A DNA stretch of 64,000 nt from a virus (IMGVR_UViG_3300009370_002293:35813-99812), one strand, 5' to 3'; positions 25,622 through 44,405 are shown, counted from the first letter of the stretch. Notes: a model not told the origin generated them from the letters alone. A program made the numbers and translations.

Positions 25622-25651
25622 TTTAAAAGCAAAAAAAACGCACACTTAGAT

Positions 25652-27312: not shown

Positions 27313-28367
27313 AAAAGAATGTTTTAATAACAGGGGCATCTGGGTTAATTGGATCGCAATGTGTAAAATTTTTTAGTAATAAAGGTTTTAATGTTATAGG
27401 GGTAGACAATAACATGCGGGCTTACTTTTTTGGAGAAGACGCGTCCACAGAATCAATCAGGCAAGAACTTCAATCCTCTTACCCTAACTATGAATGCTAT
27501 AACACGGACATCAGAGAGCTTGGTAAACTGGCGTTTATTTTTGAAAAAAACAATATTGATTTAATAATTCACACAGCAGCACAACCATCCCACGACTGGG
27601 CCGTAAAAGAGCCTTTTACAGACTTTTCCATCAATGCTCAAGGGACTCTAAATCTATTAGAACTATGTCGCCTATATTGTCCTGAAGCTACCTTTATTTT
27701 TACGTCAACAAATAAGGTGTACGGGGATAGACCTAACCAGCTGAACCTAAAAGAACTTGAAACAAGGTATGAATGCTTCGATTCACAAGGCGCCCTTTAC
27801 AGTATAAATGAAGAAATGTCAATTGATAACTGCAAGCACTCTATTTTCGGTGCTTCAAAAGTATCTGCCGACATAATGGTTCAAGAGTATGGAAAATATT
27901 TCAATATGAATACCGGTGTTTTCAGGGGCGGCTGCCTAACTGGCCCGAACCATCAAGGCGCCAAGCTTCACGGATTTTTATCTTATCTAGTAAAATGCAT
28001 TGTACATGATCAACCCTATAGTATTTTTGGCTATAAAGGAAAACAAGTTAGAGACAATATCCATAGCGCAGATTTGGTAAATATGTTTTGGGAATTTTAC
28101 AAAAACCCAAAAAAAGGTGAAGTTTACAATGCAGGAGGAGGGCGACGTAATTCAATCTCAGTAATAGAAGCAATAAACAAAATTAAAACAATTTCAAACA
28201 AAAAATGGAACTTCCTTTCCATAACAGAAAATGCCCGTGAAGGAGATCATATGTGGTATATTACGGATTTTTCTAAATTTCAAAATGATTTTCCACAATG
28301 GAGTATATCCTATGACATAGATCAAATTATTGAGCAGTTAGTAAATTATGAATCAAGTGTTTCTTAA
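27309..28367 (+). CDS. NAD-dependent sugar epimerase (CDP-paratose 2-epimerase-like)
   Basis: TGASGLIG, AAQPSHD, STNKVYG, GKQVRDNIH, REGD. Confidence 0.85.
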   Translation: MKKNVLITGASGLIGSQCVKFFSNKGFNVIGVDNNMRAYFFGEDASTESIRQELQSSYPNYECYNTDIRELGKLAFIFEKNNIDLIIHTAAQPSHDWAVKEPFTDFSINAQGTLNLLELCRLYCPEATFIFTSTNKVYGDRPNQLNLKELETRYECFDSQGALYSINEEMSIDNCKHSIFGASKVSADIMVQEYGKYFNMNTGVFRGGCLTGPNHQGAKLHGFLSYLVKCIVHDQPYSIFGYKGKQVRDNIHSADLVNMFWEFYKNPKKGEVYNAGGGRRNSISVIEAINKIKTISNKKWNFLSITENAREGDHMWYITDFSKFQNDFPQWSISYDIDQIIEQLVNYESSVS

Positions 28368-28369
28368 GT

Positions 28370-29299
28370 ATGATCGCGCAATCTAAATTAAAAATAAACT
28401 TTGTAGATTTTTGGCCAGACTTCCAAAAAAATAATAACTATTTTTTTCACTTATTAAATCTAAAATTTGATGTAGAGATCAATGAAGATGACCCAGACAT
28501 ATTATTCTTTTCTGTAGATTACGCAAAACAACGGAACAGAGATAAATATAAAAACCATCGGTGTAAGAAGGTTTTTTTCTCAGGAGAAAACGTAAGACCT
28601 AATTACGCTTCTGACTCAATAGAATACCCAATGTATAGCATCGGTAAGTGTGATTTTGCACTAACCTTTGATTTTAGCGACGATCCTCGTCACTATCGTT
28701 TACCTTTATGGGTTTTACAGATTGACTGGTTTGAGAAAAATAGCTATGGAAACCCACAGTTTGTGCTCCCATTAGACCAAATATATGATAACCCAGCTTT
28801 TTCTAAACCCAAGACTAAATTTTGTGCTTTTATTTTTAATAACCCCGTACCACATCGTTTAGAGATTCTTGAAAAAATAAATAAATATCGAAACGTAGAC
28901 GGGTACGGCCACCCTTTTGGTAATTGGTTTTATGGTGAGTATAATAAATACAAAATACTTTCTGACTATAAGTTTTCAATTTGTTTCGAAAATTCAATTT
29001 CTCCCGTAGGGGGATATTATACAGAAAAACTTTTTCACGCAAAAACTGCAGGGACAGTGCCAATTTATTGGAGTGATAAAGATTGCGCCAAGGATTTTAA
29101 TGAAAAAAGTTTTATAAATTTAAATGATTTTGATTCTATGGATGATCTTGTTTTCCACGTACAAGAAGTTGATAAAGACCCATCTCTGCACTCAACATAC
29201 CATGAACAACCCTTATTTAAAAACAAGAAAATAAATAGTAATTTTTTGCCCGAGTCTGTATTAAGTTTCTTTGAAGAAAAGGTAATTAAAAATGATTAA
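28370..29299 (+). CDS. GT10 alpha-1,3-fucosyltransferase-like protein
   Basis: GENVRP, YKFSICFENS..GYYTEKL..A..GTVPIYW. Confidence 0.85.
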   Translation: MIAQSKLKINFVDFWPDFQKNNNYFFHLLNLKFDVEINEDDPDILFFSVDYAKQRNRDKYKNHRCKKVFFSGENVRPNYASDSIEYPMYSIGKCDFALTFDFSDDPRHYRLPLWVLQIDWFEKNSYGNPQFVLPLDQIYDNPAFSKPKTKFCAFIFNNPVPHRLEILEKINKYRNVDGYGHPFGNWFYGEYNKYKILSDYKFSICFENSISPVGGYYTEKLFHAKTAGTVPIYWSDKDCAKDFNEKSFINLNDFDSMDDLVFHVQEVDKDPSLHSTYHEQPLFKNKKINSNFLPESVLSFFEEKVIKND

Positions 29300-30014
29300 T
29301 GTAGAAAAAATTTTTGTACTTCATTATACAAAGCTGAAAGAGAGAAGAGAAAGGCTTGACAATTATTTAAATAGACACAACATAGATGTAACCTACATCC
29401 TTGATTACGACCAAGAAGATTTAAATAATGAAATTATAAAAGAATGGTATTCACCCGACGAACATACATATAATTCAAAAATAAACCCTTTGTGGGGAGA
29501 GGGCGTTGCACCATTCAGAAAACTTAATGTGGCCGAAATATCTTGCACAATAAAACATTATTTAGGAATTAAATCTATTGCAGAACAGTGCACTAACTAT
29601 GGTTTAATATTAGAAGATGATGTGTTGTTTGTGGAAAATTTTCCCGAAACATTTAATACTTTCCTAGAAAAAACCCCTGATGATTGGGGTGCTATTTTTA
29701 TGGGGTGCTGCGCTGGATTAAGAATACCTCCTACCTTTTTGAAAGATAATGTATGTGCCTACGAGGTTCCACATCCTGCTTCAAGAGGGGGAGACTCATA
29801 CATACTTCGTCAAGAAGTGGCAGAAAAAATAGCATCAACCATGAAGCCATTCAACACAATAAGTGACTGGGAACTAGGATGCCAGCTTCACAAGCATAAT
29901 GTTAAAACTTATTGGTGGGAACCCCCACTCGTGGTTCAAGGGTCAGAAAATGGACTTTATAAGACTACTTTAAATGACGATAATCACCGGCAAATTCATG
30001 GAGGGGTATATTGA
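29292..30014 (+). CDS. GT25 glycosyltransferase
   Basis: ERRERL, EISCTIKH, LILEDD. Confidence 0.75.
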   Translation: MINVEKIFVLHYTKLKERRERLDNYLNRHNIDVTYILDYDQEDLNNEIIKEWYSPDEHTYNSKINPLWGEGVAPFRKLNVAEISCTIKHYLGIKSIAEQCTNYGLILEDDVLFVENFPETFNTFLEKTPDDWGAIFMGCCAGLRIPPTFLKDNVCAYEVPHPASRGGDSYILRQEVAEKIASTMKPFNTISDWELGCQLHKHNVKTYWWEPPLVVQGSENGLYKTTLNDDNHRQIHGGVY

Positions 30015-31099
30015 AAAAAATAGCATTTATTAAATTTGCGGGCTTGGCTGCTGGCGGGTGTGAAAAATACCTACAAAATATCGCGTGCATTTTAGCTGAA
30101 AGCGAACGGTTTATTGTTGATTATTACTATACTAATTCAGCACCGTATATAAATTGGAACTCACCATTCATTCACCCTGACAATGACCCACGTCAAAGAG
30201 CTTTAATGGAAGAATATCCTATTAACCTAATAGAAGTTAAAGTTCAAAATAAAGACGGAAGCGGCCCTCCATACGAATGGATTAATACCAATTTTTGGGA
30301 TTTATTTAAAGAAGAGGAATATGATTGTATTTCTAGCGCTCGTTCGGGGTATCCCGAATACCCTTTTCACATGATAAATAAAACAAAAATCATCGACACC
30401 ATACACGGACAATCAGGTGAAGATAAAATTAATATCGATAAGGCAATTTTACTATGTGATTGGCAGGCAAAACAATGGGCGTCAAATGGTGGAAATATTG
30501 ATAAAGCTCATATAATACCCACCCTAGTTACAGTACCAGAAAAAAAACCCAGCCTACTCAGAAAAAAACTAGGGATTCCAAAGAGTGCGTTTGTTTATGG
30601 GTTCCACCAAGGAAACAGAGAGGATATTTACTCTCCTGTTTCATTGGCGGCATATAATCAAATTAAAAATGAAAATAATTATTTTGTAATCATGGGTGGC
30701 GCCAACCAGCACAGAGAGTTTGCTTCAACGCTAAATTCTCCAAATATAAAATTTGTAAACTTTGATAGCTCACCTGATGCAATCCACGACTTCCTAGGGG
30801 GTATTGATGTTTTTGCCCATGCTCGTAATGATGGAGAGGTTTGTTCTGCAGCAATAATTGAGGCTTTATATCACGGTAAGCCGATTATATCGCATCCAGC
30901 CATGAACATGGGGCACTTAGAGCAGTTAGAATCTTGTGGTAAAATGGTTTTTAGCGTAGAAGAGTATGCCAAAGAAATGCTTAACCTAGAACAAAACCCA
31001 GCATACTATCAGGTTCTTTCCTTGGCTGCTTCAGAAAAATACGAAAATAAATACAGTTACAATATCATAAAAAATAAAATTTTAAAAATTTACGAATAA
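30011..31099 (+). CDS. GT4-like glycosyltransferase
   Basis: GGCEK, DVFAHARNDGEVCSAAIIEALYHGKPII. Confidence 0.8.
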   Translation: MKKIAFIKFAGLAAGGCEKYLQNIACILAESERFIVDYYYTNSAPYINWNSPFIHPDNDPRQRALMEEYPINLIEVKVQNKDGSGPPYEWINTNFWDLFKEEEYDCISSARSGYPEYPFHMINKTKIIDTIHGQSGEDKINIDKAILLCDWQAKQWASNGGNIDKAHIIPTLVTVPEKKPSLLRKKLGIPKSAFVYGFHQGNREDIYSPVSLAAYNQIKNENNYFVIMGGANQHREFASTLNSPNIKFVNFDSSPDAIHDFLGGIDVFAHARNDGEVCSAAIIEALYHGKPIISHPAMNMGHLEQLESCGKMVFSVEEYAKEMLNLEQNPAYYQVLSLAASEKYENKYSYNIIKNKILKIYE

Positions 31100-32043
31100 T
31101 GATAGTTAGTAAATGCGCAACACGAATATCCCTTGCTGGAGGTTCTACGGACCTTCAGGCATTTATTGATAAAAATGGATATGGCAGCGTTATAAGTTTT
31201 CCATGTAATATTTATACCTATATTACTCTCTTTAAAGATAAATTTGGTTATAATAAGCTAAACACCTACTTGATCAACTATACCAAACGAGAAGAAGTAA
31301 AAAACAGTAATGACATTAATAATGATATTGCTCGCTTAGTTTTAAAACATTTTAATTGCCCTCCTGTTACCTTAAATTTTCACTCGGATGTATTTGCATC
31401 AGGTTCAGGTTTAGCTTCATCATCTTCATATTTAATAAGCTGTATTAAAGCAGTTAGCTCTTATTTGAATATTAAAATGACTACATGGGAAGTCTGTGAG
31501 TTGGCCATTAAACTTGAAAGAGAATTCAACCCCCTTACAGGATATCAAGATATATACGGCTGTGCCATTAATGGTTTTAAACAGCTAGTCTTTCTTAAAG
31601 ACGGCTCTGTTACATCCATGACATTCCGAAAGGATTTTTTAAATAATTTCAAAATGTTTTTGTATCCAACGGGTGTAGATAGGAAATCTACAGATGTTTT
31701 ATCTACCATCGACCTAGAAAAATCAAAGGAGCTATTACCCTTTGTTTTTAAGATGAAATCTGCTATACAAAACAATGATAAAACTACATTTTTAAACCTA
31801 GTCCAAGAGTCGTGGGAGACAAAAAAAGAAACATCCCCACTTATACTAGAAAACCCAGTTTTAAAAAAAATCGATGGCCATCTATACAAGGATAAAAGTG
31901 TTTTAGCCCATCGCTTATGCGGCGCAGGTAACGGTGGCTTTTTCTTAATTTTTAGAGATAAAAATCACAAGTCCAAAGTTAAACAATCTATAGAGATTCC
32001 AATCAACACCGCTACAGTACCCTATCTATGTACAAAAAATTAA
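31099..32043 (+). CDS. GHMP sugar kinase (HddA heptose-7-phosphate kinase-like)
   Basis: RISLAGGSTD, GSGLASSSS, GYQD, LCGAGNGGF. Confidence 0.85.
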   Translation: MIVSKCATRISLAGGSTDLQAFIDKNGYGSVISFPCNIYTYITLFKDKFGYNKLNTYLINYTKREEVKNSNDINNDIARLVLKHFNCPPVTLNFHSDVFASGSGLASSSSYLISCIKAVSSYLNIKMTTWEVCELAIKLEREFNPLTGYQDIYGCAINGFKQLVFLKDGSVTSMTFRKDFLNNFKMFLYPTGVDRKSTDVLSTIDLEKSKELLPFVFKMKSAIQNNDKTTFLNLVQESWETKKETSPLILENPVLKKIDGHLYKDKSVLAHRLCGAGNGGFFLIFRDKNHKSKVKQSIEIPINTATVPYLCTKN

Positions 32044-32453
32044 AAATTGGCTTCACTGCCAGCTGCTTTGATTTATTACATGCTGGACACTGTTTAATGC
32101 TAGAGGACGCCCGCAAACAATGTGATTGGTTGGTAGCTGCACTTCAGGTAGACCCGTCACACGATAGACCCGAAAAAAACCCTCCCGTTCAGTCACTAGA
32201 AGAAAGAAAAATTCAACTTTCATCTTTAAAATATGTAGACCAAATTGAACTATACAAAACAGAAGAAGATTTATTACTCTTACTTAAAAAAATTAACCCT
32301 GACATACGCATTTTGGGCAGTGATTATAAAGGCAAGCGCTTTACAGGCATGGAGCTAAACCTCGAAATTTATTATCACGAAAGAAATCATTCGTGGTCAA
32401 CAACGGACCTTAGACTAAGGGTTAATAAAGCAAACGACTCAAGATATCTATAG
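32028..32453 (+). CDS. Cytidylyltransferase (TagD-like)
   Basis: SCFDLLHAGH, RILGSDY, WSTTDLR. Confidence 0.85.
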   Translation: MYKKLKIGFTASCFDLLHAGHCLMLEDARKQCDWLVAALQVDPSHDRPEKNPPVQSLEERKIQLSSLKYVDQIELYKTEEDLLLLLKKINPDIRILGSDYKGKRFTGMELNLEIYYHERNHSWSTTDLRLRVNKANDSRYL

Positions 32454-32495
32454 ACAAATCATAAAAAATAAAGTACTCTCCCTTACAAGGAAAAA

Positions 32496-33413
32496 TTGAT
32501 GAGCAAAAAAAGCGTAGTTACAGGCGGCTGTGGATTCATTGGTAGTCATGTAGTGGACCTTTTAATAAAAGAAGGGCACGAGGTTGTTGTGATAGATAAT
32601 CAATCTGCTGAGTGTAATGAAGAATTTTTTAAAAATAAAAATGCCACCTATCACCTTGAAAACATAGAAGAGGCGGAAAAAATAGACCCTATTTTCGAGG
32701 GCGCCGATTACGTTTTTCACCTTGCCGCCGAATCTCGAATTCAACCAACCCTAGAAAGACCGTCCAAGGCCTGTTTAACAAATTTTGTAGGAACCTGTAA
32801 CGTCCTTCATGCTTCAAAAAAATACAATGTAAAAAGAGTAGTTTATTCCTCTACCTCCTCTGGCTACGGTCTTAAAAATGAGCCACCCCTACACGAAGGG
32901 ATGGAGCGTGATTGCCTTAACCCTTATTCTGTAAGCAAGGTTGCCGCAGAAGATTTATGTAAAATGTATTATACGTTATGGGGGCTTGAAACGGTTGTGT
33001 TACGTTATTTTAATGTTTACGGAGAGCGACAACCCCTAAAGGGACAGTACGCTCCAGTTGTAGGAATATTTCAGAGGCAAAAAAGTAATAATGAGCCGCT
33101 CACTATTGTGGGGGACGGAGAACAACGACGAGACTTTACTCATGTATCCGACGTAGCTCAAGCCAACCTTCTTGCCGCAACGACACCCCACGCTAGTCCA
33201 CATGATATTGCAGGCGAAATTTTTAACGTAGGAACAGGCTTAAATAATTCGGTCTTAGAAATAGCAGCTTTAGTAGGGGGTCGCACCACCCACATTGACA
33301 GCAGGCCCGGCGAAGCACGAACTACCCGAGCCAATATAAATAAAATCAAACAAAGATTGGGCTACAACCCCAGAGTTAACATAGAGGAATGGATAACTGA
33401 ACAAAATGGATGA
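32496..33413 (+). CDS. NAD-dependent epimerase/dehydratase
   Basis: TGGCGFIGSH, YSVSK, LRYFNVYG, GDGEQRRDF. Confidence 0.9.
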   Translation: MMSKKSVVTGGCGFIGSHVVDLLIKEGHEVVVIDNQSAECNEEFFKNKNATYHLENIEEAEKIDPIFEGADYVFHLAAESRIQPTLERPSKACLTNFVGTCNVLHASKKYNVKRVVYSSTSSGYGLKNEPPLHEGMERDCLNPYSVSKVAAEDLCKMYYTLWGLETVVLRYFNVYGERQPLKGQYAPVVGIFQRQKSNNEPLTIVGDGEQRRDFTHVSDVAQANLLAATTPHASPHDIAGEIFNVGTGLNNSVLEIAALVGGRTTHIDSRPGEARTTRANINKIKQRLGYNPRVNIEEWITEQNG

Positions 33414-34074
33414 ATTACCTAAAGTTTCGCATGGTTTACTCGAAAAGAAGAGGCGCGCATACGTAGTCTTAGGACCCGAAATAAGCGGTACAAAGTTGCT
33501 GGCAGAGATTCTTCTTAAATGTTGTAATTTGCAAGGCCGCGTTACCGACGGTTTCTTGCCCGATGAAAAAGAAGACCTAATAATGGTGAGGTGGTCTCTC
33601 CCTTCTGGTCTTTTTGATTTGCCAACACCTCAATGGACATCTCACAACGATAGAATGGTGGATGTAAATTCAATTATTGAAGGGTTGTCAAAGAAGGGGT
33701 ACCTACCAGTATTTCTTGGAATAAGTAGAAGTTGGATAGCTGTAACAAAGTCTAGATTAAAACAATATAAAGAGCACAAGGACTCACGATTTGGAGAGCC
33801 AGATGCGCTAGACACGCACCTTCACATGGTGAGGCGTGGTATCTCTTATTTTTATGATAATGTACCCCACTCTGGTTTCCCATGGTATATGTTTTCATAC
33901 GAAGAAATAACGAACACTCCTGAACTCATCGTACCCCAACTGGCTAAAATGTTGAATTTAGAATTTAAGGGGCTTGATAAACTAGATTGGCCCATAAAGA
34001 GTCAAAACTCTAAATGGTTTAAAGAAGAAAAAGGGGCTACAGGTGACCCTTTTAAATTTGACACATGGGGGTAA
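33406..34074 (+). CDS. Sulfotransferase-like protein
   Basis: VVLGPEISGTKLL and SYEEI..PE resemble PAPS-binding family motifs. Confidence 0.45.
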   Translation: MDELPKVSHGLLEKKRRAYVVLGPEISGTKLLAEILLKCCNLQGRVTDGFLPDEKEDLIMVRWSLPSGLFDLPTPQWTSHNDRMVDVNSIIEGLSKKGYLPVFLGISRSWIAVTKSRLKQYKEHKDSRFGEPDALDTHLHMVRRGISYFYDNVPHSGFPWYMFSYEEITNTPELIVPQLAKMLNLEFKGLDKLDWPIKSQNSKWFKEEKGATGDPFKFDTWG

Positions 34075-34077
34075 AAA

Positions 34078-34827
34078 ATGGTCTTAATGCTTACAATGGC
34101 TGGACAATACAGCCGATTCAAAGAATTTAGTTACGCAATCCCAAAGTATCTTTTACCGCTTTCTAGCCGAACTGTTTTATACCAAATATTATCCTCCTTT
34201 TCCAAGGATGAGGTTTTTGATGAGGTAATCTTAGTGGCGAATAAAAAAGATTTAAGATTTCAATCGCAAATCTCCAGAACCTTAGAGGAATTTAATTTTA
34301 GTAAAAAACATTTAATTTTTATTGATGATACAGAAGGACAATCTATCACCGCCCTAGAAGGATTGAAGTTTCTAAACGAGAAAACATCACCCCAAAAACC
34401 ATTAGCGATCCATAATATAGACACGATCCTATTAAACAGGAACTTTAAAGATATATCGACTCTTCTCACCTATTGCGACTGCGTAATCGACGCTTTTGTA
34501 GCAAATAATGAATCGTATAGCTACATACTTCTCGATGATGAAAATGTTTCAGCTATAATTGAAAAGCAGCTTATTTCAGACGTAGCCTCTTCTGGCTGTT
34601 ATTTTTTCAAGACCTTAAGCATGGCGTCAAATTACCTAAAGAAATCCGAAAATCATTATATAAGTGACTCTATAATGAAAATGATTAAAGATAATTTAAA
34701 GGTAAAAATAACACAGATAAGCAGTGGCAATGAAACTTTTGTTTTAGGAACACCACAAGAGTATATAAACTCTATGGGGTTTTTTGACTTAACCATTCAT
34801 GACTCAAACAAAAAAAACACTACTTAA
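34078..34827 (+). CDS. Sugar-phosphate nucleotidyltransferase-like protein
   Basis: MAGQYSRF..PKYLL, TEGQ, HNIDT, IIEK..IS. Confidence 0.75.
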   Translation: MVLMLTMAGQYSRFKEFSYAIPKYLLPLSSRTVLYQILSSFSKDEVFDEVILVANKKDLRFQSQISRTLEEFNFSKKHLIFIDDTEGQSITALEGLKFLNEKTSPQKPLAIHNIDTILLNRNFKDISTLLTYCDCVIDAFVANNESYSYILLDDENVSAIIEKQLISDVASSGCYFFKTLSMASNYLKKSENHYISDSIMKMIKDNLKVKITQISSGNETFVLGTPQEYINSMGFFDLTIHDSNKKNTT

Positions 34828-35764
34828 AGGAGGGTCTCTTGCTGGCACCTTTTTGATAAAAACGGATAAAGAATTATTTGTCCGAAAAGAAATTTCATTA
34901 ATTAGCGAAAGAGAATACGGGTATCAAAGGTGGTACTCTCAGCTTAAAAGACTACAGCGCTATGAACTTTTATTTCCATCTATTTTTGCAAAAGTGATAC
35001 GTTACGGAGTGACGGAGGATAAAGCATTCTTTGATTTAAAATATTACAGTGGCTATCACAATTGTTGGTCGTATTTAATGGACTGCACCGATAATGAAGA
35101 AATTAAATATATATTTCAATCAATTATCGAAGCATTAAATATTATACACTCTAAACGACTCCCCTCTTGCAAGGAAGCTCTAGAGCTTTACTACGAAGAG
35201 GAGGTTAAAAAGAAAATAAACGATTGCTTGACGGACAAAGATTTTTTAGATTACTATAATCGGTCTGAAATATTATTCCATGGAAAACTTATACCATCTC
35301 TTAGTTCTATGTTAAACGATTATAAAGAATTCGGCACAGAGAATTACACAACACCAATGGAGTGTTATACTCATGGAAATATCACCCTAGAAAACATCCT
35401 TTATTCACCCGAAAAAAGAAAAGTTATTTTTATTGACCCTTACGAAGAAAATATAATAGACAATATATATAACGAATACTCTCAATTGTTGCAATCCTGT
35501 AATAGTCATTATGAAATTTATAATGAATGGGGTAACGGGACGGATTATATACCATATACCCCTCATGGTATCAAATATTTTAATGAATTATTTTTTAATT
35601 TTATGAAAGATAATTTATCTGATGAAGAAATAAAAATTGTTAAATTTTTTGAAGTTTCCCAATTTATAAGAATGCTTCCTTTTAAGTTAAAAGGAGACCG
35701 TAAAAAAATGTTTATGTTTTATGGACTTGCTTCCCACTTAACATCAAAACTTTTGTCACGATGA
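34799..35764 (+). CDS. APH/choline-kinase-fold phosphotransferase
   Basis: GGSLAGT, FVRK, THGNITLENIL, FIDP. Confidence 0.7.
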   Translation: MTQTKKTLLKGGSLAGTFLIKTDKELFVRKEISLISEREYGYQRWYSQLKRLQRYELLFPSIFAKVIRYGVTEDKAFFDLKYYSGYHNCWSYLMDCTDNEEIKYIFQSIIEALNIIHSKRLPSCKEALELYYEEEVKKKINDCLTDKDFLDYYNRSEILFHGKLIPSLSSMLNDYKEFGTENYTTPMECYTHGNITLENILYSPEKRKVIFIDPYEENIIDNIYNEYSQLLQSCNSHYEIYNEWGNGTDYIPYTPHGIKYFNELFFNFMKDNLSDEEIKIVKFFEVSQFIRMLPFKLKGDRKKMFMFYGLASHLTSKLLSR

Positions 35765-36888
35765 AAAACGAATGGTTAGTCGAAACAACCCTTCCCGTTT
35801 CTTTTAAAATCGAAACGGTAAAAAATCTTTTAAACCCAGAAACAGGCACCTTACTGGAGTTAGGCGACTCATCACGCCGGTTAATTTTTGTTGACTCAAG
35901 TGTTTTTTCTTTTTTTGGAAAAAAAATACATTCTTATTTTTCAAAAAATAATATTGAAGCCAAAATAGTTCCCGTAGACATTTCTGAAGAAAAAAAAGAT
36001 ATAGATACTTTAATGTTTATTTTAAATACTATTGAAAATTTTGGTTTATTAAGAAGAAATGAGCCAATCATTTGTATTGGTGGTGGTGTACTATTAGACA
36101 TAGTAGGGTTTGCATCTAACCTGTTTCGTCGAAGTGTTCCTTATATAAAGGTTCCCACCACCCTTTTAGCGATTGTTGACGCAAGCATTGGTGTCAAAAC
36201 TTCAATTAACCATTTTGGAAGAAGAAATCGTTTAGGAAGCTATTATCCACCTCAAGCCGTTTATTTGGATAAAACATTTTTAAAAACGGTTCCCCCCGAA
36301 GAAATACATCAGGCAATGGGGGAAATAATAAAAATTGCGATAATTAAAAATATTAATTTATTTTCTTTACTCGAAAAACACGCCCCCAAAATCATAGAGG
36401 AAAAATTTTTAGTTGACGGAGTAGCCGATGAAATAATATCCCACTCTATACACGACATGATAGAAGAACTTCAGCCCGATTTATTAGAAAAAAATTTAAA
36501 ACGTGTTGTAGACTTTGGTCATTCATTTAGCCCCTTATTAGAAATGAATTCTTTAAAAGACTCAAAGGTATCCTCCTTGTCACATGGCCAAGCCGTAACT
36601 TTAGATATTATATTTTCGAGCTGCCTTTCTTACTATAGGGGGCTTTTAACTCAAGAATCACTAAAGAGAATTATAAACCTATGCCGTAAATGTAATCTCG
36701 CAGTTACCCACGAATATTTTACAAATGTATTAATGTTATGGGAGTCACTCCTTGACACAACAAAACATAGAAACGGAAACCAAAACCTGCCTATACCCGA
36801 TAAACTTGGAAGTTGTATTTTTATAAATGATGTTTCTTTGACGGAAATAAAAAGAATAGTTGAAATTTTTAAAATTTACAGTAAATGA
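35761..36888 (+). CDS. Sedoheptulose-7-phosphate cyclase, 2-epi-5-epi-valiolone synthase type
   Basis: GGGVLLD, PTTLL..VDAS, NRLGSYYPP, MIEELQP, RVVDFGHSFSP, HGQAV, TKHRNG. Confidence 0.88.
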   Translation: MKNEWLVETTLPVSFKIETVKNLLNPETGTLLELGDSSRRLIFVDSSVFSFFGKKIHSYFSKNNIEAKIVPVDISEEKKDIDTLMFILNTIENFGLLRRNEPIICIGGGVLLDIVGFASNLFRRSVPYIKVPTTLLAIVDASIGVKTSINHFGRRNRLGSYYPPQAVYLDKTFLKTVPPEEIHQAMGEIIKIAIIKNINLFSLLEKHAPKIIEEKFLVDGVADEIISHSIHDMIEELQPDLLEKNLKRVVDFGHSFSPLLEMNSLKDSKVSSLSHGQAVTLDIIFSSCLSYYRGLLTQESLKRIINLCRKCNLAVTHEYFTNVLMLWESLLDTTKHRNGNQNLPIPDKLGSCIFINDVSLTEIKRIVEIFKIYSK

Positions 36889-37544
36889 AAACCCTAGTAA
36901 TAACTGGAGTTAATAGTGGGGTAGGTAAAAAAGCAGCCGAATTTTTTTGCCAAAAATATAACGTCATTGGAATTTCTCGCTCTTATAACAGCCAAAAACA
37001 TTTAAAAAATTTCCGATTCATACAGTGTGACATTTCTAAACCAGAGGAAGTTAAAAAGTCTTTTGAGACCATCGCCAATATTGATAATTTAATTAATTGC
37101 GCAGCAATTTTTGAATCCAAACCTTTCTCGGAACAGGATATGGATGTTATCGAAAAAATTATTGATACCAACCTTAAGGGTACAATATTGGTAAGTAAGG
37201 CAGCCTTAGAAAAAATGAAAAAAGGAAGAATAATTAATATTTCTTCAGTCTCAGGAAAACACGGCATAGAGAATCAAGCAGTCTACTCTGCAAGTAAACA
37301 CGGCTTAACTGGCTTTATGGATTCCTTAAACCAAGAAACTCTAAAAGGGGGGGTTCAGGTAACTAATTTGTGCCCCGGCGGCATACAGACCCCTTTATGG
37401 AGCATTAACAACCCCTACAGAGGGGCGCTAGACCGACTTTTAACTCCTGATGATATCGTAAGGGTTTTAAACTTCATAATTGAATCCCCCCAGCGTATAG
37501 TATTTAAAGAATTAACCTTATTCCCCGACAACGAGATTCATTGA
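36885..37544 (+). CDS. Short-chain dehydrogenase/reductase
   Basis: TGVNSGVG, INCAA, NISS, YSASK. Confidence 0.9.
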   Translation: MKTLVITGVNSGVGKKAAEFFCQKYNVIGISRSYNSQKHLKNFRFIQCDISKPEEVKKSFETIANIDNLINCAAIFESKPFSEQDMDVIEKIIDTNLKGTILVSKAALEKMKKGRIINISSVSGKHGIENQAVYSASKHGLTGFMDSLNQETLKGGVQVTNLCPGGIQTPLWSINNPYRGALDRLLTPDDIVRVLNFIIESPQRIVFKELTLFPDNEIH

Positions 37545-37548
37545 AGTC

Positions 37549-38358
37549 ATGAAAATTAAATTATATATTGTTACCTATAAAGGTCACCGGCGCCTTAACC
37601 CGACCCTTAACTCCCTACTTAATAGTGACTTAAAAAAATACGACCATGAAATTAATATCATAAACAATCACTCGGATATTAGATTAGATCCAAAATTTTT
37701 AAATAAAGTTAATATTTTAAACAATATATTACGCCCAGATTGGTCTTCAGGTCATTTATCGCGCAATTGGAACCAAGCGCTTATAAATGGTTTTGGGTCG
37801 TTGATCAATCCATTGTGTGATGTAGTAGTCTGTAGTCAAGATGATTCATTATTCAGGTCTGACTGGGCTTCTAAGTTAGAAGAAATCCATCGCAAATATT
37901 CCTTCGTACAAAATGGGCATGGCGACCAATTTCATTCCTATCTCCCTGAAGCCGTAAGGCATGTTGGGTTATGGGACGAGCGGTTTTGTGGTATATCCAG
38001 ACAAGCTGCTGATTATTTATGGCGTTGTGTAATGTATAACAAAAATTCAAGCACCATTCAAGATCACCTTCATTCTCGGGTTCTTAACCCCCTTTTTCCT
38101 GATGACCTAGAAAAATCACGCGGGTGGTTGGTTGACCCAGATGTAAGAAAACTAGATGATGTATGGGACAACAGTAGTAATGATAATGAAAATTTGTCCG
38201 TAAAATTAATTGAGGCAAAATACCCTGAAGACCCTTGGCCTTGGACAAAGGAAAAAATTAAAAATGCCCCAAACAAAACTGTAATTCAAAACCATATTAC
38301 TTACCCCTATTTCGAAAAAGATATCTACGATCTAAAAGGTAAAGGGTACTTAGTTTAG
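37549..38358 (+). CDS. GT-A fold glycosyltransferase-like protein
   Basis: IVTY, LSRNWN, SQDD, VGLWDERF..ADY. Confidence 0.6.
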   Translation: MKIKLYIVTYKGHRRLNPTLNSLLNSDLKKYDHEINIINNHSDIRLDPKFLNKVNILNNILRPDWSSGHLSRNWNQALINGFGSLINPLCDVVVCSQDDSLFRSDWASKLEEIHRKYSFVQNGHGDQFHSYLPEAVRHVGLWDERFCGISRQAADYLWRCVMYNKNSSTIQDHLHSRVLNPLFPDDLEKSRGWLVDPDVRKLDDVWDNSSNDNENLSVKLIEAKYPEDPWPWTKEKIKNAPNKTVIQNHITYPYFEKDIYDLKGKGYLV

Positions 38359-38360
38359 AA

Positions 38361-39338
38361 ATGAAGGCAATTATAGTTGGTGCAGGTCTTTCTGGGGTAG
38401 TGTCTGCTATAATTTTAAAAGAAAAGGGGTATAATGTAGAAATATTTGAACAGAGAAACCATATTGCCGGCAATTGTTACGATAAAAAAATAGAAGGTAT
38501 TATGGTCCATAAATATGGCCCTCACGGATTTCACACCAACAACAAAATGGTATGGGATTTCGTAAATAAATATACAGATTTCAACAACACCTGTTTAAAG
38601 GTAAAGGCAAACACCAAGGACGGCATAATCCCAATTCCTTATGGCCCCGCCGCAAAAGAAATAATTGGAGAAAAAACCTCTGAAGAAATTATAAATTTGA
38701 TTTTCAAAGATTATAGTGAAAAAATGTGGGGCGTTCCATGGGAAAAACTTCCTCCATCCATCACTAAACGAGTACCTAAAATAAGAAATAATTTAAGCAC
38801 ATGTTTTCATGTTGACAAGTACCAAGGAATTCCTGTGAGTGGCTACACGGTCATGTTTAAAAACATGTTAGATGGAATAAAGGTACATTTAAATTGTAAA
38901 AAAGATGAGTGGCGAAAACAAAAGTATGACTTGTTAATATATACAGGTAAAATAGACGAATACTTTGATTATTGCCATGGGTGGCTGGAATACAGGTCTT
39001 TATTCATTCAGTTTGAAACTGGGGTACGAAGACCCGATATATTTCAGTTAAATGAATGTAATAAAAAGGCATGGACAAGAAGCGTTGACCACTCTCACTG
39101 GCACACCCAAAATGTAACAAATACAATTATTTCTAAAGAATACCCTCAAGAACACACCCCCCATAATATTCCCTTTTACCCTAAACAATTCGGAAAAAAC
39201 ACCGAACTCTACAAGGAGTATAAAAAACTTGCTGACCGCCAAAAAAATGTTATATTTACAGGTAGGTTAGCCACTTATAAATACCTAGACATGGACATTG
39301 CCATCGCACAAGCACTCCAAAAACTTAGCCAAGTATGA
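38361..39338 (+). CDS. glf: UDP-galactopyranose mutase
   Basis: VGAGLSG, HIAGNCYD, HKYGPHGFHT, YQGIP..GY, LEYRSL, GRLATYKYLDMD. Confidence 0.92.
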   Translation: MKAIIVGAGLSGVVSAIILKEKGYNVEIFEQRNHIAGNCYDKKIEGIMVHKYGPHGFHTNNKMVWDFVNKYTDFNNTCLKVKANTKDGIIPIPYGPAAKEIIGEKTSEEIINLIFKDYSEKMWGVPWEKLPPSITKRVPKIRNNLSTCFHVDKYQGIPVSGYTVMFKNMLDGIKVHLNCKKDEWRKQKYDLLIYTGKIDEYFDYCHGWLEYRSLFIQFETGVRRPDIFQLNECNKKAWTRSVDHSHWHTQNVTNTIISKEYPQEHTPHNIPFYPKQFGKNTELYKEYKKLADRQKNVIFTGRLATYKYLDMDIAIAQALQKLSQV

Positions 39339-39886
39339 GACTAGATCACATAGCTTATAGAAGCTACGACAGGAAAAAAACTGCAAAATTTTTCCAAGAT
39401 TGCTTGGGTTATTCTATCGCCACAGAGTTTGACCTAGAGTTTGAAGACGGCAGTACCACTAAATGTGTGGCCATGATCCCCCCTGAAACTCGTCCCCCAA
39501 GTACTGACATGTGGAAATATTACTCTTTGCAGCCAGTACCATATGGAAGCATCAAGGCCGAATACCATGCCCCCCCTGAAATTTTTATAAGTGATGGCGT
39601 AGAGGGGTCTATTGTAGCAGAATGGGTAAAAGAACGGGGCGGTATCGGGGGTATCCATCACATTGCTTATCAAGTAGAAGATGTTGAGGCCACTATGCAT
39701 TCTTGGAGAAAGCAAGGGTACGCGGAATTTCTTTCCGATGTGCCCTTAGAGTGCCCGGGATTAAAGCAGGTTTTCACCAAGCCATCTGAATTAACTGGAG
39801 TTATATATGAATTGATAAGTCGAACAGGGAAGGGGTTTTGCGAAGACAATGTAAAAGGATTAATGGAGAGTACGAAAGGGGCATAA
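39335..39886 (+). CDS. VOC-fold metalloenzyme (HPPD/HglS-like 2-oxoacid dioxygenase candidate)
   Basis: DHIAYR, PEIFIS, GGIHHIAY, LKQVFT, YELISR, GFCEDNVKGLMEST. Confidence 0.7.
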   Translation: MRLDHIAYRSYDRKKTAKFFQDCLGYSIATEFDLEFEDGSTTKCVAMIPPETRPPSTDMWKYYSLQPVPYGSIKAEYHAPPEIFISDGVEGSIVAEWVKERGGIGGIHHIAYQVEDVEATMHSWRKQGYAEFLSDVPLECPGLKQVFTKPSELTGVIYELISRTGKGFCEDNVKGLMESTKGA

Positions 39887-39887
39887 A

Positions 39888-41423
39888 ATGAGAGACTTTG
39901 AAGGGCGTAATTATATCAACGGAGAATGGCGCGCCACCTCTGAAATGTACACCAAGATTAACCCTTCAACCGGTAAGGCTCAGGGGGCGTTTCCCGTAAG
40001 CGGTGCACCTGAAGTAACTAAGGCTGTTTTGTCGGCAAAAAAAGCTTTTAAAAAATGGAAGAAATTAAGTCGTTTCGTAAGATCAGATTTTTTAAACAAG
40101 GTTGCACAATTAATTGAGGAACGCAAAGATAAACTGGCGAAAGTAATTTCACTCGAGACAGGAAAAACATATAATGAATCTATAGCCGAAGTAAACGAAG
40201 CGCTACATATGGCTCAATTTGCCTTCGGATCAGGTCGATTTGCACACGGAGAGGCTGTTTCATCTGAGATTCAAGATAAAGATTCTTACATGTTACGGAA
40301 ACCAAAGGGTGTAATAGCTATTATAACACCTTTTAATTTTCCTTTGGCAATTGGAATGTTTTGGAACGCGGCCCCAGCCCTCGTAGAAGGAAATACAATA
40401 GTAATTAAACCCAGTGAAGATGCCCCGATGTCAACCCAAATGGCTGTCCAAATTTATGCGGACGCTGGTATCCCACGTGGAGTCATTAATTTGGTTCACG
40501 GCGATGGTGGGACTGGTAACCTTTTGGTTCATGCTGATATCGATCATATTTGTTTCACTGGTTCTGCCGATGTCGGACAACATATTCGTAAAGTGGCTGC
40601 TGAATCTTGGCACAAAACCACCTCCTGCGAATTAGGTAGTAAATCAGCCTGTATTATTTTTGATGACGTTGAAGTGCCGCTTGCACTTGAGGCAGCAATA
40701 GCTAGCGCCTTTAAATTATCTGGTCAACGCTGTGTTTCTTCGGGCAGAATTATAGTTCAAAGAACTATTTTTAATGATTTCTCCAGACGTTTTGCTGAAA
40801 AAGCAGCCCAATTAAAAACAGGTAACCCATTTAAATCCATGCTTGGCACCTCAGGATGTCCCGATGGAATGGTCTGGGAAGACCTTATTCCTGACGAAAG
40901 CGTTTATTATGGCCCAATCATAAATCAACAGGGTTTTGACAAAATCAGAAGATACAACAAAATGGTTTTAGATGACCCCGAAGCAGAGGTTCTTTTATCC
41001 CCTCAGTACACAGGAGACGGAAAAAGCTATTATAGTACGCCTATGGTTTATAAAACAGAATGGCGCGGAGACGAAGCCCAATACCTTAGGAACGAAGTGT
41101 TTGGGCCGCATGTTGCTATTATTCCATTTGACACCATAGAAGATGCAATTCACATTTATAATGATACCGAGTATGGTCTCGCTGTTGGGGTATTAACAAA
41201 TGATTTTAGAAAAGCTAGAATTATGAGGGATGAGTGCGATGCGGGCATGATCTACTGGAACGGTGGGTCTATCGCAGCTGAATCTCATCTAGCTTTTGGT
41301 GGAGTTAAAAAGTCTGGTAACGGATTTCCAAGCGCAGCCAGAACTGTCAGGGCTGTTACTCACGAAATAAGTTGGACAGTTAATCACGCCAACAAGTTAA
41401 CCTTTCCACAGGGAATGAAATAA
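39888..41423 (+). CDS. Aldehyde dehydrogenase
   Basis: PFNFP, KPSE, FTGS, ELGSKS, SGQRC, EVFGP, FGGVKKSG. Confidence 0.95.
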   Translation: MRDFEGRNYINGEWRATSEMYTKINPSTGKAQGAFPVSGAPEVTKAVLSAKKAFKKWKKLSRFVRSDFLNKVAQLIEERKDKLAKVISLETGKTYNESIAEVNEALHMAQFAFGSGRFAHGEAVSSEIQDKDSYMLRKPKGVIAIITPFNFPLAIGMFWNAAPALVEGNTIVIKPSEDAPMSTQMAVQIYADAGIPRGVINLVHGDGGTGNLLVHADIDHICFTGSADVGQHIRKVAAESWHKTTSCELGSKSACIIFDDVEVPLALEAAIASAFKLSGQRCVSSGRIIVQRTIFNDFSRRFAEKAAQLKTGNPFKSMLGTSGCPDGMVWEDLIPDESVYYGPIINQQGFDKIRRYNKMVLDDPEAEVLLSPQYTGDGKSYYSTPMVYKTEWRGDEAQYLRNEVFGPHVAIIPFDTIEDAIHIYNDTEYGLAVGVLTNDFRKARIMRDECDAGMIYWNGGSIAAESHLAFGGVKKSGNGFPSAARTVRAVTHEISWTVNHANKLTFPQGMK

Positions 41424-41430
41424 TTTTATT

Positions 41431-42189
41431 ATGAGTGCCGAAAATAATGAACCAAAAAGTAAAGCGGAGGTTAAAGCTGACATTGCTAAAACCGAAGCTG
41501 AAACTAGAAAAATTTTAGCTGAAGCAACTAAAGCTGAAGCCGAGGCAGATCTAGCAATATTGGACCTTGCATCAGTACAACGAAGTGCTGATCGAGAAAA
41601 CGCCTCCGACGAACGAAATTTTCTTTATAGATTTTCTGGGGAAGTGAGCCGTTCCTCTGTATCGGGATGCATGAAAAACCTTACCCACTGGTCTCGCCTT
41701 AACCCACAGTGTGACATTGAGATTATTTTTTCTAGCCCCGGGGGGAGCATTATTGACGGGTTTGAACTATTTGATTTTCTTCAAGAACTAAGGGCTAAAG
41801 GCCATCATATAACAACAGGAACACTTGGTATGGCGGCATCTATGGCAGGGATTCTTTTGCAAGCTGGAGATACTCGTTGGGTTGGTGGTCAAGCTTGGGT
41901 AATGATCCATAGAGCAGCCTTCGGGGCATTTGGCAAAACTTTTGAAATCGAAGATGAAGTAGAGTTTGTAAAAAGAATAGAAGAAAGAATTTTAGATATT
42001 TTTACCATACGATCTCGATTAACCAAACAAAAAATTAAAAGAAATTGGGACCGTAAAGATTGGTGGATTAGTGCCGACGAGGCCTTAGAACTCAAATTAG
42101 TAGACGAAATTAGAGCCATACTTCCAGAAAGTACCCCCGTGAGAAAAACCCAAAAAGGTGTTAAAAAAAGAACCCGTAAAAAACGATGA
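41431..42189 (+). CDS. ClpP-like serine protease with N-terminal coiled coil
   Basis: SPGGSIIDG, GMAASMA, MIH, DWWISADEA. Confidence 0.88.
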   Translation: MSAENNEPKSKAEVKADIAKTEAETRKILAEATKAEAEADLAILDLASVQRSADRENASDERNFLYRFSGEVSRSSVSGCMKNLTHWSRLNPQCDIEIIFSSPGGSIIDGFELFDFLQELRAKGHHITTGTLGMAASMAGILLQAGDTRWVGGQAWVMIHRAAFGAFGKTFEIEDEVEFVKRIEERILDIFTIRSRLTKQKIKRNWDRKDWWISADEALELKLVDEIRAILPESTPVRKTQKGVKKRTRKKR

Positions 42190-42383
42190 AAAAACAAAAA
42201 GCAAAACGAAGGGTGACGAGGACAAGAGAACTTAATCAAGCCCTTAAAGCTAGTGGTAAATCTTACCCCTTTGACATAGAATGGATAAAGCACTATAATC
42301 CTATGGAGGGCAAAGACCAAATAATATTTATTTACAAAAACAAAAAAAATAAAAAAATTGCCAAATGGAGGAGTAAAATATGA
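42186..42383 (+). CDS. Small basic hypothetical protein
   Basis: ATGA overlaps on both sides. Confidence 0.55.
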   Translation: MKKQKAKRRVTRTRELNQALKASGKSYPFDIEWIKHYNPMEGKDQIIFIYKNKKNKKIAKWRSKI

Positions 42384-42781
42384 GTTACGGAGGAGAAGCC
42401 AATCAATACGAGGAATTATCAGAGAACATGGAGTTTCATGAATCTAAGCGTTTTTCACCTGAAGGTGAACAGAAAGTAGCTTTAGTAGATATTGATGAAA
42501 CAATTTGCTTTTACCCTACAAAAAGACAATATAACTTGGCCGAACCAAGCCAAGAAAATATTGATAAAATAAATAAACTTTTTGACGAAGGATGGAAAAT
42601 TGTTTATTGGACTGCCAGAGGTGGTTCGTCATTAAAAGATTATTATGATTTTACATGGAATCAATTATTAAAATGGGGGTGTAAATTCCATGAATTACAC
42701 ACGGGTACACGAGGGAGGTTCATAAAACCCCCTTATGATCTAGTAATTGACGATAAAGCAAAACGGATTGAAGAGTTATGA
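42380..42781 (+). CDS. HAD phosphatase (capsule-locus type)
   Basis: DIDETIC, YWTARG, KP..DLVIDDK. Confidence 0.8.
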   Translation: MSYGGEANQYEELSENMEFHESKRFSPEGEQKVALVDIDETICFYPTKRQYNLAEPSQENIDKINKLFDEGWKIVYWTARGGSSLKDYYDFTWNQLLKWGCKFHELHTGTRGRFIKPPYDLVIDDKAKRIEEL

Positions 42782-43284
42782 GTGAAGACAGGGATTACCT
42801 CGAACGAATGTCATCTCTTTTAGCTGTTCGTTCTCTAAAAGACACGTTTCTTCATGAAGGCCCATCTTTAGACAGTGCCACTGGCAAGTTGGATATAAAA
42901 GAATCCAAAATTGGAATACGAGGTGTTTTTGCTGGAGAAGATTTTAAAAAAGGGGATGTAGTTGAAGTGTGCCCCACTATTTTGCTAGACTTTCAAATAG
43001 GAATGCTTGGGATTTTAATTGACTATGTATTCCCTTACCCTCAGAAAGAATACTGCCTCCTTCCTTTGGGTTACGCAATGATGTATAATCACGCAGACCA
43101 ACCAAATTGTTACTGGAAATATGGTGACATAGAAGACACAGATAAAGGGTGGATTTCATTTTTTGCCCTTTATGATATAAAAAAGGGGACCGAATTAACA
43201 TGGAATTACGGTTCAGGTTACTGGAAAGGGAGAGGTATAGAGCCCACCCCTGATTTAAACTACATTGAAGAAAAAAACAAATGA
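42778..43284 (+). CDS. SET-domain protein-lysine methyltransferase
   Basis: RGVFA..F.KG, MYNHADQPN, DIKKGTELTWNY. Confidence 0.88.
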   Translation: MSEDRDYLERMSSLLAVRSLKDTFLHEGPSLDSATGKLDIKESKIGIRGVFAGEDFKKGDVVEVCPTILLDFQIGMLGILIDYVFPYPQKEYCLLPLGYAMMYNHADQPNCYWKYGDIEDTDKGWISFFALYDIKKGTELTWNYGSGYWKGRGIEPTPDLNYIEEKNK

Positions 43285-44405
43285 AAAAGGTTGCTGTTTT
43301 AGGTGTTGGAAGAATGGGTCAAGCCATCTGTTGGTGTATGAAAAAATTAGGATACTATGTTATAGGCATGGATTCTAATGAGCATGCAGCCCACAATTTT
43401 AGGAAACATATAAATGGTAACGAAGGTGAATTTTATTTAACGGACCAAAATAACGCGGATAAAATGATGGAGGCCTTTATCCTCTATAATAAACCAGATG
43501 TTGTAATTAGTAGTCTACCCTACCACCAAACAGAAGAAATTGCCTATTGGTGCATTGACAACTCATTTCGTTACTGTGATTTAGGTGGTCGAGTTGATGT
43601 TTCTCATAACATCAATGAATATGCCAAGCAAAAGGGCACTGCTCCAGTTATGACAGATTTAGGCTTGGCCCCGGGATGGGTAAATATTTTAGCCGAACAC
43701 GGGTGTAAAGAATTAAATTCTCAGGCTCATACAGTAGAAATGATGGTCGGCGGCATTCCAGTCAATAGACCTTCAGGGCCATTAAAATATGTGCCCACGT
43801 GGTCTATTGATGGTTTACTAAACGAATATCGTGATGACTGTGAAATTTTATTAGATGGAGAATTACAAACAGTAAAGGGTCTTTCTAACTATATACTTAT
43901 AGAGCCCGACTGGGATGGCTGTGTGGGGCTGGAGGCATTTTGTACGAGCGGGGGCGCCGCGCATTCAATAAAATCAATGCAAAAAAAAGGTGTTAAAAAT
44001 TGCATGTATAGGACATTGCGGTGGATAGGACACCATGAATTGTTAAATTTTCTGATGAATACCTGTAAGTTAGATGATGAAACTCTAACATCGTGTATAC
44101 ACAAAAGCGCCGAGTGCGAAAAATCTACTGACGACGTGGTGATAATAATAGTATCAATAACAAACAAAAAAGGGCTCTCATGGAGAAAAGAAAAGGTAAT
44201 TTATAGTGATGACGATTTCACAGCAATGCAAAAATCTACAGCATTTCCAATTTCATCTATTGCCGCCATTTTAGCAGAAGGAATTCTTGAGGGTGATAAA
44301 GATCAACATAGAGATTATTATACACAATATTCATCTTCACTTAATTACGAAGATGTTCCGTACGAAAAATTAGAAAAGAATTTAGACAAACTTTTTAACG
44401 CATGA
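43281..44405 (+). CDS. Saccharopine dehydrogenase family, lysine 6-dehydrogenase-like
   Basis: GVGRMG, DLGG, GLAPG, VGGIP..PLKY..TWSIDGLLNEY, LEAFCTSGG, TLRW.GH, TAMQKSTAFP. Confidence 0.82.
   Translation: MKKVAVLGVGRMGQAICWCMKKLGYYVIGMDSNEHAAHNFRKHINGNEGEFYLTDQNNADKMMEAFILYNKPDVVISSLPYHQTEEIAYWCIDNSFRYCDLGGRVDVSHNINEYAKQKGTAPVMTDLGLAPGWVNILAEHGCKELNSQAHTVEMMVGGIPVNRPSGPLKYVPTWSIDGLLNEYRDDCEILLDGELQTVKGLSNYILIEPDWDGCVGLEAFCTSGGAAHSIKSMQKKGVKNCMYRTLRWIGHHELLNFLMNTCKLDDETLTSCIHKSAECEKSTDDVVIIIVSITNKKGLSWRKEKVIYSDDDFTAMQKSTAFPISSIAAILAEGILEGDKDQHRDYYTQYSSSLNYEDVPYEKLEKNLDKLFNA

Follow-up and report, generated by a model that had tools for sequence, protein, structure and literature searches.

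Gene content of the locus

We analyzed a 64,000-nt stretch of viral DNA (IMGVR_UViG_3300009370_002293:35813-99812; called the window below), which makes up the final 64 kb of an IMG/VR virus record of 99.8 kb with a CheckV completeness of about 64%. An earlier note, made from the sequence without database searches, had described five abutting genes at 34078-38358 as a phage cassette for the synthesis, activation and transfer of a C7-cyclitol (carbasugar). The five open reading frames (ORFs) were confirmed at these coordinates, all on the plus strand and with neighbours abutting or overlapping (Table 1). Four of them, coding for a nucleotidyltransferase (NT), a kinase-like protein, a sugar-phosphate cyclase and a ketoreductase, form a unit that is conserved across viruses and cells. 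The fifth, coding for a GT-A glycosyltransferase (GT), is a neighbour of this unit.

The five enzyme classes assigned in the earlier note also held. Pfam named three of the proteins: NTP_transferase (a weak match) for the NT, DHQ_synthase and DHQS_C for the cyclase, and adh_short for the reductase, a short-chain dehydrogenase/reductase (SDR). The kinase-like protein, which has the aminoglycoside phosphotransferase (APH) fold, and the GT-A protein were identified by structure models. The NT and kinase ORFs overlap by 29 nt, the kinase and cyclase ORFs by 4 nt and the cyclase and SDR ORFs by 4 nt, and a 4-nt gap separates the SDR from the GT-A ORF, suggesting that the ORFs are translationally coupled. 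Promoter-like matches in a promoter scan were at chance level, and terminator-like matches were about twice the shuffled mean with no signal specific to the cassette.

Table 1. Genes of the cassette, the adjacent GT gene and the surrounding island (positions in the window).
Feature	Position	Strand	Basis
Nucleotidyltransferase (NT), sugar-1-phosphate NT type; core gene 1	34078..34827	+	Pfam, solved relatives, synteny
APH-fold kinase-like protein, HGN for catalytic HGD; core gene 2	34799..35764	+	Model, Foldseek, alignment
Predicted EEVS-type sedoheptulose-7-phosphate cyclase; core gene 3	35761..36888	+	Solved relatives, fingerprint, tree
Classical SDR ketoreductase; core gene 4	36885..37544	+	Pfam adh_short, motifs
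GT-A (GT2-like) glycosyltransferase; neighbour, outside the conserved cassette	37549..38358	+	Model, Foldseek, QDD
Co-oriented glycan-synthesis island, about 21 kb	25652..47046	+	Annotated ORFs

Assignment of the cyclase

The cyclase matched DHQ_synthase with 112.5 bits and DHQS_C with 74.2 bits. GGGxxxD, K146, E188, H254 and H275 were invariant in 24 homologues, and the fold of the 3-dehydroquinate synthase (DHQS) superfamily with its NAD and metal sites is thereby retained. Among solved relatives, the best match was ValA (4P53; 283.8 bits, 2e-83), a synthase of 2-epi-5-epi-valiolone (EEVS), and the second-best was desmethyl-4-deoxygadusol synthase (DDGS; 5TPR; 222.2 bits, 1e-64). Scores were at best 138.1 bits (4e-39 or worse) against DHQS and 78.4 bits against the synthase of 2-deoxy-scyllo-inosose (DOIS).

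A Pfam or TIGRFAM pipeline would name this protein 3-dehydroquinate synthase. It would then be an AroB of the shikimate pathway or, alternatively, a DDGS for a mycosporine or gadusol sunscreen. We consider both identities extremely improbable, as they are contradicted by the sequence data. With the aroB equivalog TIGR01357, the cyclase scored 205.7, below the cut-off of 305, and ValA itself scored 206, while the housekeeping AroBs of five genomes in which the cassette or ValA also occurs scored 344-413. The neighbourhood contains no O-methyltransferase, ATP-grasp or other shikimate genes.

Two active-site positions tell bacterial EEVS from DDGS (PMC4426668). In the HMMER alignment, the cyclase reads DMIEELQ, VDFGHSFSP and TTKHRNG and ValA reads MLEELQ, VDFGHSFSP and VKHRDG, whereas DDGS reads MLELEV (LELEVP), IAYGHTWSP and TLTRDG at the same sites. 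The two separating sites, which on the basis of this alignment we take to be the Asp in VDFGH and the His in KHR, are D and H in the cyclase and in ValA, in contrast to A and T in DDGS. The three motif positions that had been named earlier as separating EEVS from DDGS were thus recovered exactly.

We then placed the cyclase in a maximum-likelihood tree of 124 rows rooted on AroBs, with support given by the Shimodaira-Hasegawa-like approximate likelihood ratio test (SH-aLRT). The AroB outgroup separated at SH-aLRT 100. The window cyclase was found inside a 105-row clade (SH-aLRT 99) that also holds genuine ValA (L103/L145, 743 bits against 4P53), and inside this clade a single clade (SH-aLRT 94) united all 60 cyclases that are linked to the kinase. 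Actinobacterial and other EEVS-like cyclases without the kinase were placed outside the kinase-linked clade. A phylogeny including ValA and AroB had been proposed in the earlier note as a check, and in it the cyclase grouped with ValA, apart from AroB. Bit scores, the aroB cut-off, the fingerprint and the tree agree with the class given there, EEVS type rather than AroB or DDGS.

We concluded that the cyclase is a predicted EEVS-type cyclase of sedoheptulose 7-phosphate (SH7P), a class that in our comparison includes 2-epi-valiolone synthase (EVS) together with EEVS. It agrees with ValA/AcbC of validamycin and acarbose synthesis in fold and in inferred substrate class (SH7P), shares VDFGHSFSP, KHR and (I/L)EELQP with ValA (4P53), and falls in the same large clade. 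It differs in being only about 38-40% identical, in belonging to a separate clade defined by linkage to the APH-fold kinase, and in being encoded by a phage.

Conservation of the four-gene unit

We surveyed 139 loci with a cyclase homologue by tblastn and ORF clustering, and 69 of them carried kinase and cyclase. In the scan of viral contigs, a single-protein query found nothing, but an alignment-based query found 59 loci. Among the 69 cassette loci, the cyclase was present in 68, the kinase in 67, the NT in 64 and the SDR in 56. The four genes were nearly always adjacent, overlapping and co-oriented, while their flanks differed. The carriers were about 50 IMG/VR viral contigs and about 20 bacterial or archaeal genomes from many phyla, with cellular carriers in Myxococcota, Desulfobulbaceae, Saccharibacteria, Fibrobacterota, Balneolaceae, Polynucleobacter, Marinomonas, Prochlorococcus and Woesearchaeota. 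Viral contigs usually had the order NT-kinase-cyclase-SDR, and most cellular genomes kinase-cyclase-SDR-NT.

These results indicate that the conserved unit consists of the NT, the kinase-like protein, the cyclase and the ketoreductase, four genes and not five. Of the five-gene cassette in the earlier note, the co-occurrence of these four in about 70 loci stood, but the GT-A gene fell outside the unit. The synteny search in phage and other loci that the note had suggested found the four genes together in many phage and cellular loci.

The cassette was found in surface-glycan loci in the two cellular genomes whose surroundings were checked. In Polynucleobacter it is flanked by ManC, GT2 and Wzz and, at its opposite end, by a GT9-like gene, and in Marinomonas it lies between a DegT aminotransferase and a UDP-GlcNAc 2-epimerase (WecB).

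In the tree, the window formed its own viral lineage together with two other contigs, L001 and L002 (SH-aLRT 100). This lineage grouped (SH-aLRT 94) with cellular sequences from a clade comprising Woesearchaeota, Desulfobulbaceae, Fibrobacterota, Polynucleobacter and Myxococcota, apart from the main viral clade of 34 contigs. A single viral clade was rejected by the approximately unbiased test at p = 5.8e-8, for a group that was named after seeing the tree and with one contig, L004, that is possibly misclassified. It thus appears from this tree that the marine lineage of the window gained the cassette in a separate acquisition.

In about 19 contigs that make up a second viral lineage (L030-L055; for example, L049:2122-3360), NT and kinase are separated by an inserted RuBisCO-large-subunit-like protein (149 bits). 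A 112-aa protein without known function was inserted at the same place in these contigs.

In a megablast search with the region, no GenBank phage was matched. An EEVS-type cyclase was found in none of 50,697 GenBank phage records, where the only matches were AroB-like with less than 31% identity. Literature searches pairing EEVS or SH7P cyclase with phage or virus returned nothing relevant, in agreement with the earlier statement that no characterised viral example was known.

The kinase-like protein

The kinase-like protein (321 aa) had no Pfam or NCBIfam match. Its AlphaFold model (pLDDT 93.5, pTM 0.91) was matched by Foldseek to APHs, N-acetylhexosamine 1-kinase (NahK), fructosamine-3-kinase, maltokinase, 5-methylthioribose (MTR) kinase and LicA. 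It shares with these APH/choline-kinase-fold kinases the bilobal fold (Foldseek probability 1.00, TM 0.5-0.6), the Gly-rich loop, the ATP-binding Lys and the metal-binding Asp, whereas the solved members are only 9-15% identical to it. A further difference lies in the catalytic loop. APH-type kinases have HxDxxxxN, but the catalytic Asp is replaced with Asn in the cassette family, and the window reads HGNITLEN, as the earlier note had pointed out in reporting HGN for the usual HGD.

This replacement was found in all close members of the family whose sequence covers the motif. K30, H192-G193-N194, N199, D213, E217 and the Gly-rich loop were kept in 28 aligned homologues, all of which read H-G-N-x-T-L-E-N. 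A profile search of 1.84 billion representatives gave 116 clusters at E <= 1e-30. Among the 150 best library representatives, 92 carried HGNxT(L/I/F)EN, all of them among the higher-scoring ones; higher-scoring representatives without the motif were mostly short sequences, probably fragments. A lower-scoring sister family has HGDLTxEN, and its members are often fused to an LPG_synthase_TM or HAD domain (for example, P0362, P0371, P0390 and P0367), which hints at a role with lipid-linked or phospho-sugars. Since HGN is family-wide while the sister family keeps HGD, the Asp-to-Asn change is, as judged from these alignments, a mark of the kinase family of the cassette and not a sign of decay. It presents a clean enzymological puzzle that is open to testing.

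The nucleotidyltransferase and the reductase

The NT matched Pfam NTP_transferase with 23.5 bits (cut-off 21.2) and gave weak NCBIfam matches to the N-terminal part of Arch_glmU, RmlA and IspD. Its best solved relative was a nucleoside-diphosphate-sugar pyrophosphorylase (4EVW, 1.7e-9).

The SDR matched adh_short with 144.5 bits, and its motifs TGxxxGxG, NISS and YSASK (the catalytic Ser and YxxxK) were intact; the nearest solved relatives were FabG-type ketoreductases. In six cassette loci, the position of the SDR was taken by a non-homologous aldo-keto reductase (AKR). This swap points to reduction of a ketone as the probable reductase step of the cassette. Throughout the cassette enzymes, the catalytic motifs were intact except for the Asn of the kinase-like protein.

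The adjacent GT-A gene

The GT-A protein (269 aa) had no Pfam match, and its model (pLDDT 88) was matched by Foldseek to TarP, SpsA and K4CP, which are GT-A/GT2-like. Q97-D98-D99, an acidic motif of DxD type, was conserved. The family comprised 486 homologues and was found in 79 IMG/VR loci, examined with 8-kb flanks. Only two of these, L159 and L160, also carried kinase, cyclase and SDR, and both are close kin of the window (81-88%). The GT-A protein had been proposed as the transfer step of the cassette. Because its family accompanies the cassette in only these 2 of 79 loci, transfer of a cyclitol by the GT-A protein is unsupported. In hhalign comparisons, the families flanking the cassette in other lineages were unrelated to the GT-A protein of the window and to the 222-aa protein on the upstream side.

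Next to the GT-A gene is a gene for UDP-galactopyranose mutase (38361-39338), whose 289 bits fall slightly short of the equivalog cut-off. Its presence suggests that the phage-directed glycan contains galactofuranose and that the GT-A protein has a plausible ordinary donor. The 222-aa protein (33406-34074) abuts the NT and had no Pfam match. Its look-alikes are mostly viral hypothetical proteins, and some of their clusters carry sulfotransferase domains, which is only a lead.

Genomic context

The replicon is, as judged from its genes, a large uncultured marine tailed phage, because the CheckV-rated record has genes for rIIA, an ATP-dependent ligase, a clamp loader, a sigma factor, a collagen-like tail fibre, ribonucleotide reductase (RNR) and DnaB. 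A RecA/UvsX-like protein and a tmRNA were also found. The cassette is thus phage-encoded, as had been supposed.

The cassette lies in a co-oriented glycan-synthesis island. The island codes for a GT47/RXYLT1-like protein, an epimerase/dehydratase, a GT10 fucosyltransferase, a GT25, a GT4, an HddA-like GHMP kinase, an NT like RfaE domain II, an epimerase, the UDP-galactopyranose mutase, a GDP-mannose 4,6-dehydratase (44402-45457) and a GT2. Genes for ClpP, SET, VOC, aldehyde dehydrogenase (ALDH) and saccharopine-dehydrogenase-like proteins are interleaved with them. Large phages with GT-bearing glycan islands are known. The island of the window resembles these in being a co-oriented block of NDP-sugar enzymes and GTs in a viral genome (NDP, nucleoside diphosphate), and differs from them by its additional branch for a carbocyclic sugar.

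Immediately upstream of the cassette, 31099-33413 contains the HddA-like GHMP kinase (31099-32043, 95 bits), the adenylyl/cytidylyltransferase like RfaE domain II (32028-32453) and an NAD epimerase. These genes resemble a nucleotide-heptose branch, for which SH7P would likewise be needed. A search for phage supply of SH7P found no transaldolase or GmhA isomerase on the fragment.

No methyltransferase-oxidase (MT-Ox), mycosporine or shikimate genes were found among the ORFs annotated at 24.9-48.1 kb, in line with the earlier report that none is adjacent to the cassette. DNA had also been considered as a glycosylation target. No gene of the ThyA/dCMP-hydroxymethylase family was found on the fragment of the record, which is about 64% complete and carries only ThyX, and DNA as a target is therefore unsupported.

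Proposed pathway and alternative explanations

We propose that the phage carries a self-contained four-gene cassette that would convert SH7P to an NDP-cyclitol for a virion or cell-surface glycan, and we assign to this reading a probability of roughly 0.6. From SH7P of the host, the cyclase would make a C7 cyclic ketone of valiolone type, either 2-epi-5-epi-valiolone or its 2-epimer, and the SDR would reduce the ring ketone to a saturated cyclitol. The next step, phosphorylation of the cyclitol, would fall to the APH-fold kinase-like protein. It would most likely take place at the C1 hydroxyl, the new pseudo-anomeric position, which is favoured because the structural neighbours of the protein include kinases of anomeric hydroxyls (NahK, maltokinase and MTR kinase). 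The NT would make the NDP-cyclitol, which is proposed because its nearest solved relatives are sugar-1-phosphate NTs. The activated carbasugar would finally be passed to a transferase of the island or the host and decorate a virion or cell-surface glycan. From the cyclase class onward, we infer the substrates and products, the nucleotide, whether reduction precedes phosphorylation, and which transferase and acceptor take part.

The earlier note had compared the cassette with the logic of the acarbose and validamycin pathways. The order of the pathway is alike, since the GDP-valienol branch of these pathways (AcbM/ValC, AcbO, AcbL, AcbN, AcbU, AcbJ, AcbR/VldB and AcbS/VldE; PMC9200736) also runs from a cyclase through redox tailoring and phosphorylation to nucleotidylation. 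The parts differ: eight or more genes are used there and four in the cassette, the cyclitol 7-kinase there is of ROK type and not of APH fold, and those genes lie in a secondary-metabolite cluster, whereas the cassette lies in a surface-glycan locus or a phage glycan island. The 2-epimerase, dehydratase, phosphatase/mutase and pseudoglycosyltransferase families of the GDP-valienol pathway were absent among the ORFs at 24.9-48.1 kb, and tblastn searches of the ValA locus L103 (E 1e-5) gave no match to the NT, kinase and SDR of the cassette. By this comparison, the cassette would follow the GDP-valienol logic with non-orthologous parts and half the steps. A VOC protein of the island (39335-39886) was considered as a ValD/CetB-like epimerase and rejected, as it is only methylmalonyl-CoA-epimerase-like and had no match in the ValA locus.

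Several points weigh against the proposed pathway. Loss of the catalytic Asp usually kills activity in ordinary kinases, and the HGN protein may therefore not be a simple kinase. The known pseudoglycosyltransferases VldE and AcbS work with an unsaturated donor, GDP-valienol. The cassette lacks a dehydratase, and a saturated NDP-carbasugar would be expected to serve poorly as a glycosyl donor. The cassette is also not accompanied by a conserved transferase: the neighbouring GT-A gene is not linked to it, and the genes flanking the cassette in different lineages are unrelated by hhalign. The Pfam score of the NT is weak though above the threshold, EEVS and EVS are not distinguishable in a comparison set that contained no EVS sequence, and the functions of the cassette members are predicted from genes and models.

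The need of known pseudoglycosyltransferases for an unsaturated donor, together with the lack of a dehydratase, makes phosphodiester-type transfer a serious rival. The kinase would in that case phosphorylate a primary hydroxyl, for example C7-OH, and the NT would make a CDP-cyclitol for transfer as with CDP-glycerol, CDP-ribitol, CDP-choline or CDP-inositol, not in a glycosyl-like manner. Such a route sidesteps the chemical difficulty of transferring a saturated carbasugar and fits the lack of a conserved GT. It also fits the weak matches of the NT to IspD and ribitol-5-phosphate cytidylyltransferase models, and the kinase fold includes the choline kinase LicA, which is the partner of the NT LicC. 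The best NCBIfam and solved-structure matches of the NT are, however, sugar-1-phosphate NTs, and no gene of LicD, TagF or CDP-alcohol-phosphatidyltransferase type lies next to the cassette in the window, so that we hold this route to be rather unlikely. All characterised C7-cyclitol pathways end in soluble compounds, among them acarbose, validamycin, kirkamide and gadusol (PMC9200736, PMC12904256, PMC4426668). This precedent, like the lack of a dedicated transferase conserved with the cassette, would suit a soluble end product that is not bound to a glycan, for example an inhibitor of a glycosidase or trehalase, an antimetabolite, a compatible solute or an ultraviolet screen. We consider such a product improbable, because the conservation of the NT in 64 of the 69 loci implies activation for transfer and because both bacterial and phage cassettes are located in glycan loci; the window also has no MT-Ox, ATP-grasp, aminotransferase or pseudoglycosyltransferase.

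It might also be that the cyclitol is made by the cyclase and reductase only, and that the kinase-like protein and the NT are mere neighbours serving a heptose or hexose branch. Neither of the two has a specific family annotation, sugar-activation genes are plentiful, and a second kinase/NT pair lies just upstream, in the heptose-like branch. We regard this separation as very improbable in view of the four genes staying together, their stop and start codons overlapping, in about 70 viral, bacterial and archaeal loci whose flanks are unrelated, and of the single clade formed by the kinase-linked cyclases. One 728-aa ORF (P0277) that fuses the HGN kinase to the cyclase also speaks weakly against it, being a singleton on a 4.2-kb contig and a possible frameshift artefact.

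Significance

The new observations here are that the GT-A gene is unlinked to the cassette, that the kinase family is split into HGN and HGD branches, that the marine lineage of the window is separate, and that the EEVS-type cyclase is absent from GenBank phage records. A wider and tentative possibility, to which we give clearly less weight than to the pathway itself, is that phages and many planktonic bacteria and archaea build carbocyclic-sugar glycoconjugates by a minimal four-enzyme route, in which an Asp-less protein of kinase fold activates the cyclitol, possibly by non-canonical chemistry. If true, such compounds would form a new class among natural glycoconjugates, resistant to glycosidase cleavage at the carbasugar residue. 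C7-cyclitols are known only as soluble natural products, and an NDP-activating cassette would bring carbasugars into glycan biology. It would also add a new set of auxiliary metabolic genes in marine and freshwater phages, drawing on the pentose-phosphate pool of the host, and would offer a four-enzyme route to NDP-carbasugars for glycoengineering.

Other features of the phage fragment

A strong bidirectional terminator-like hairpin was found at 25635-25660, in the gap before the first gene of the island. The run of GT genes that follows at 26509-31099 (GT47/RXYLT1-like, GT10 alpha-1,3-fucosyltransferase, GT25 and GT4) is more typical of eukaryotes or lipopolysaccharide (LPS) cores. Among the interleaved genes, the ClpP-like gene lies at 41431-42189 and codes in the same island as a small SET-domain protein at 42778-43284.

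The large DNA polymerase (55226-57829) is about 30% identical to the DnaE-type Pol III alpha of Streptomyces phages and other cultured phages. Because it is of DnaE type and not of family B, the label 'T4-like' is doubtful for this phage. The tmRNA, found with ARAGORN at 48184-48588, encodes a 31-residue tag ending in AAVAA.

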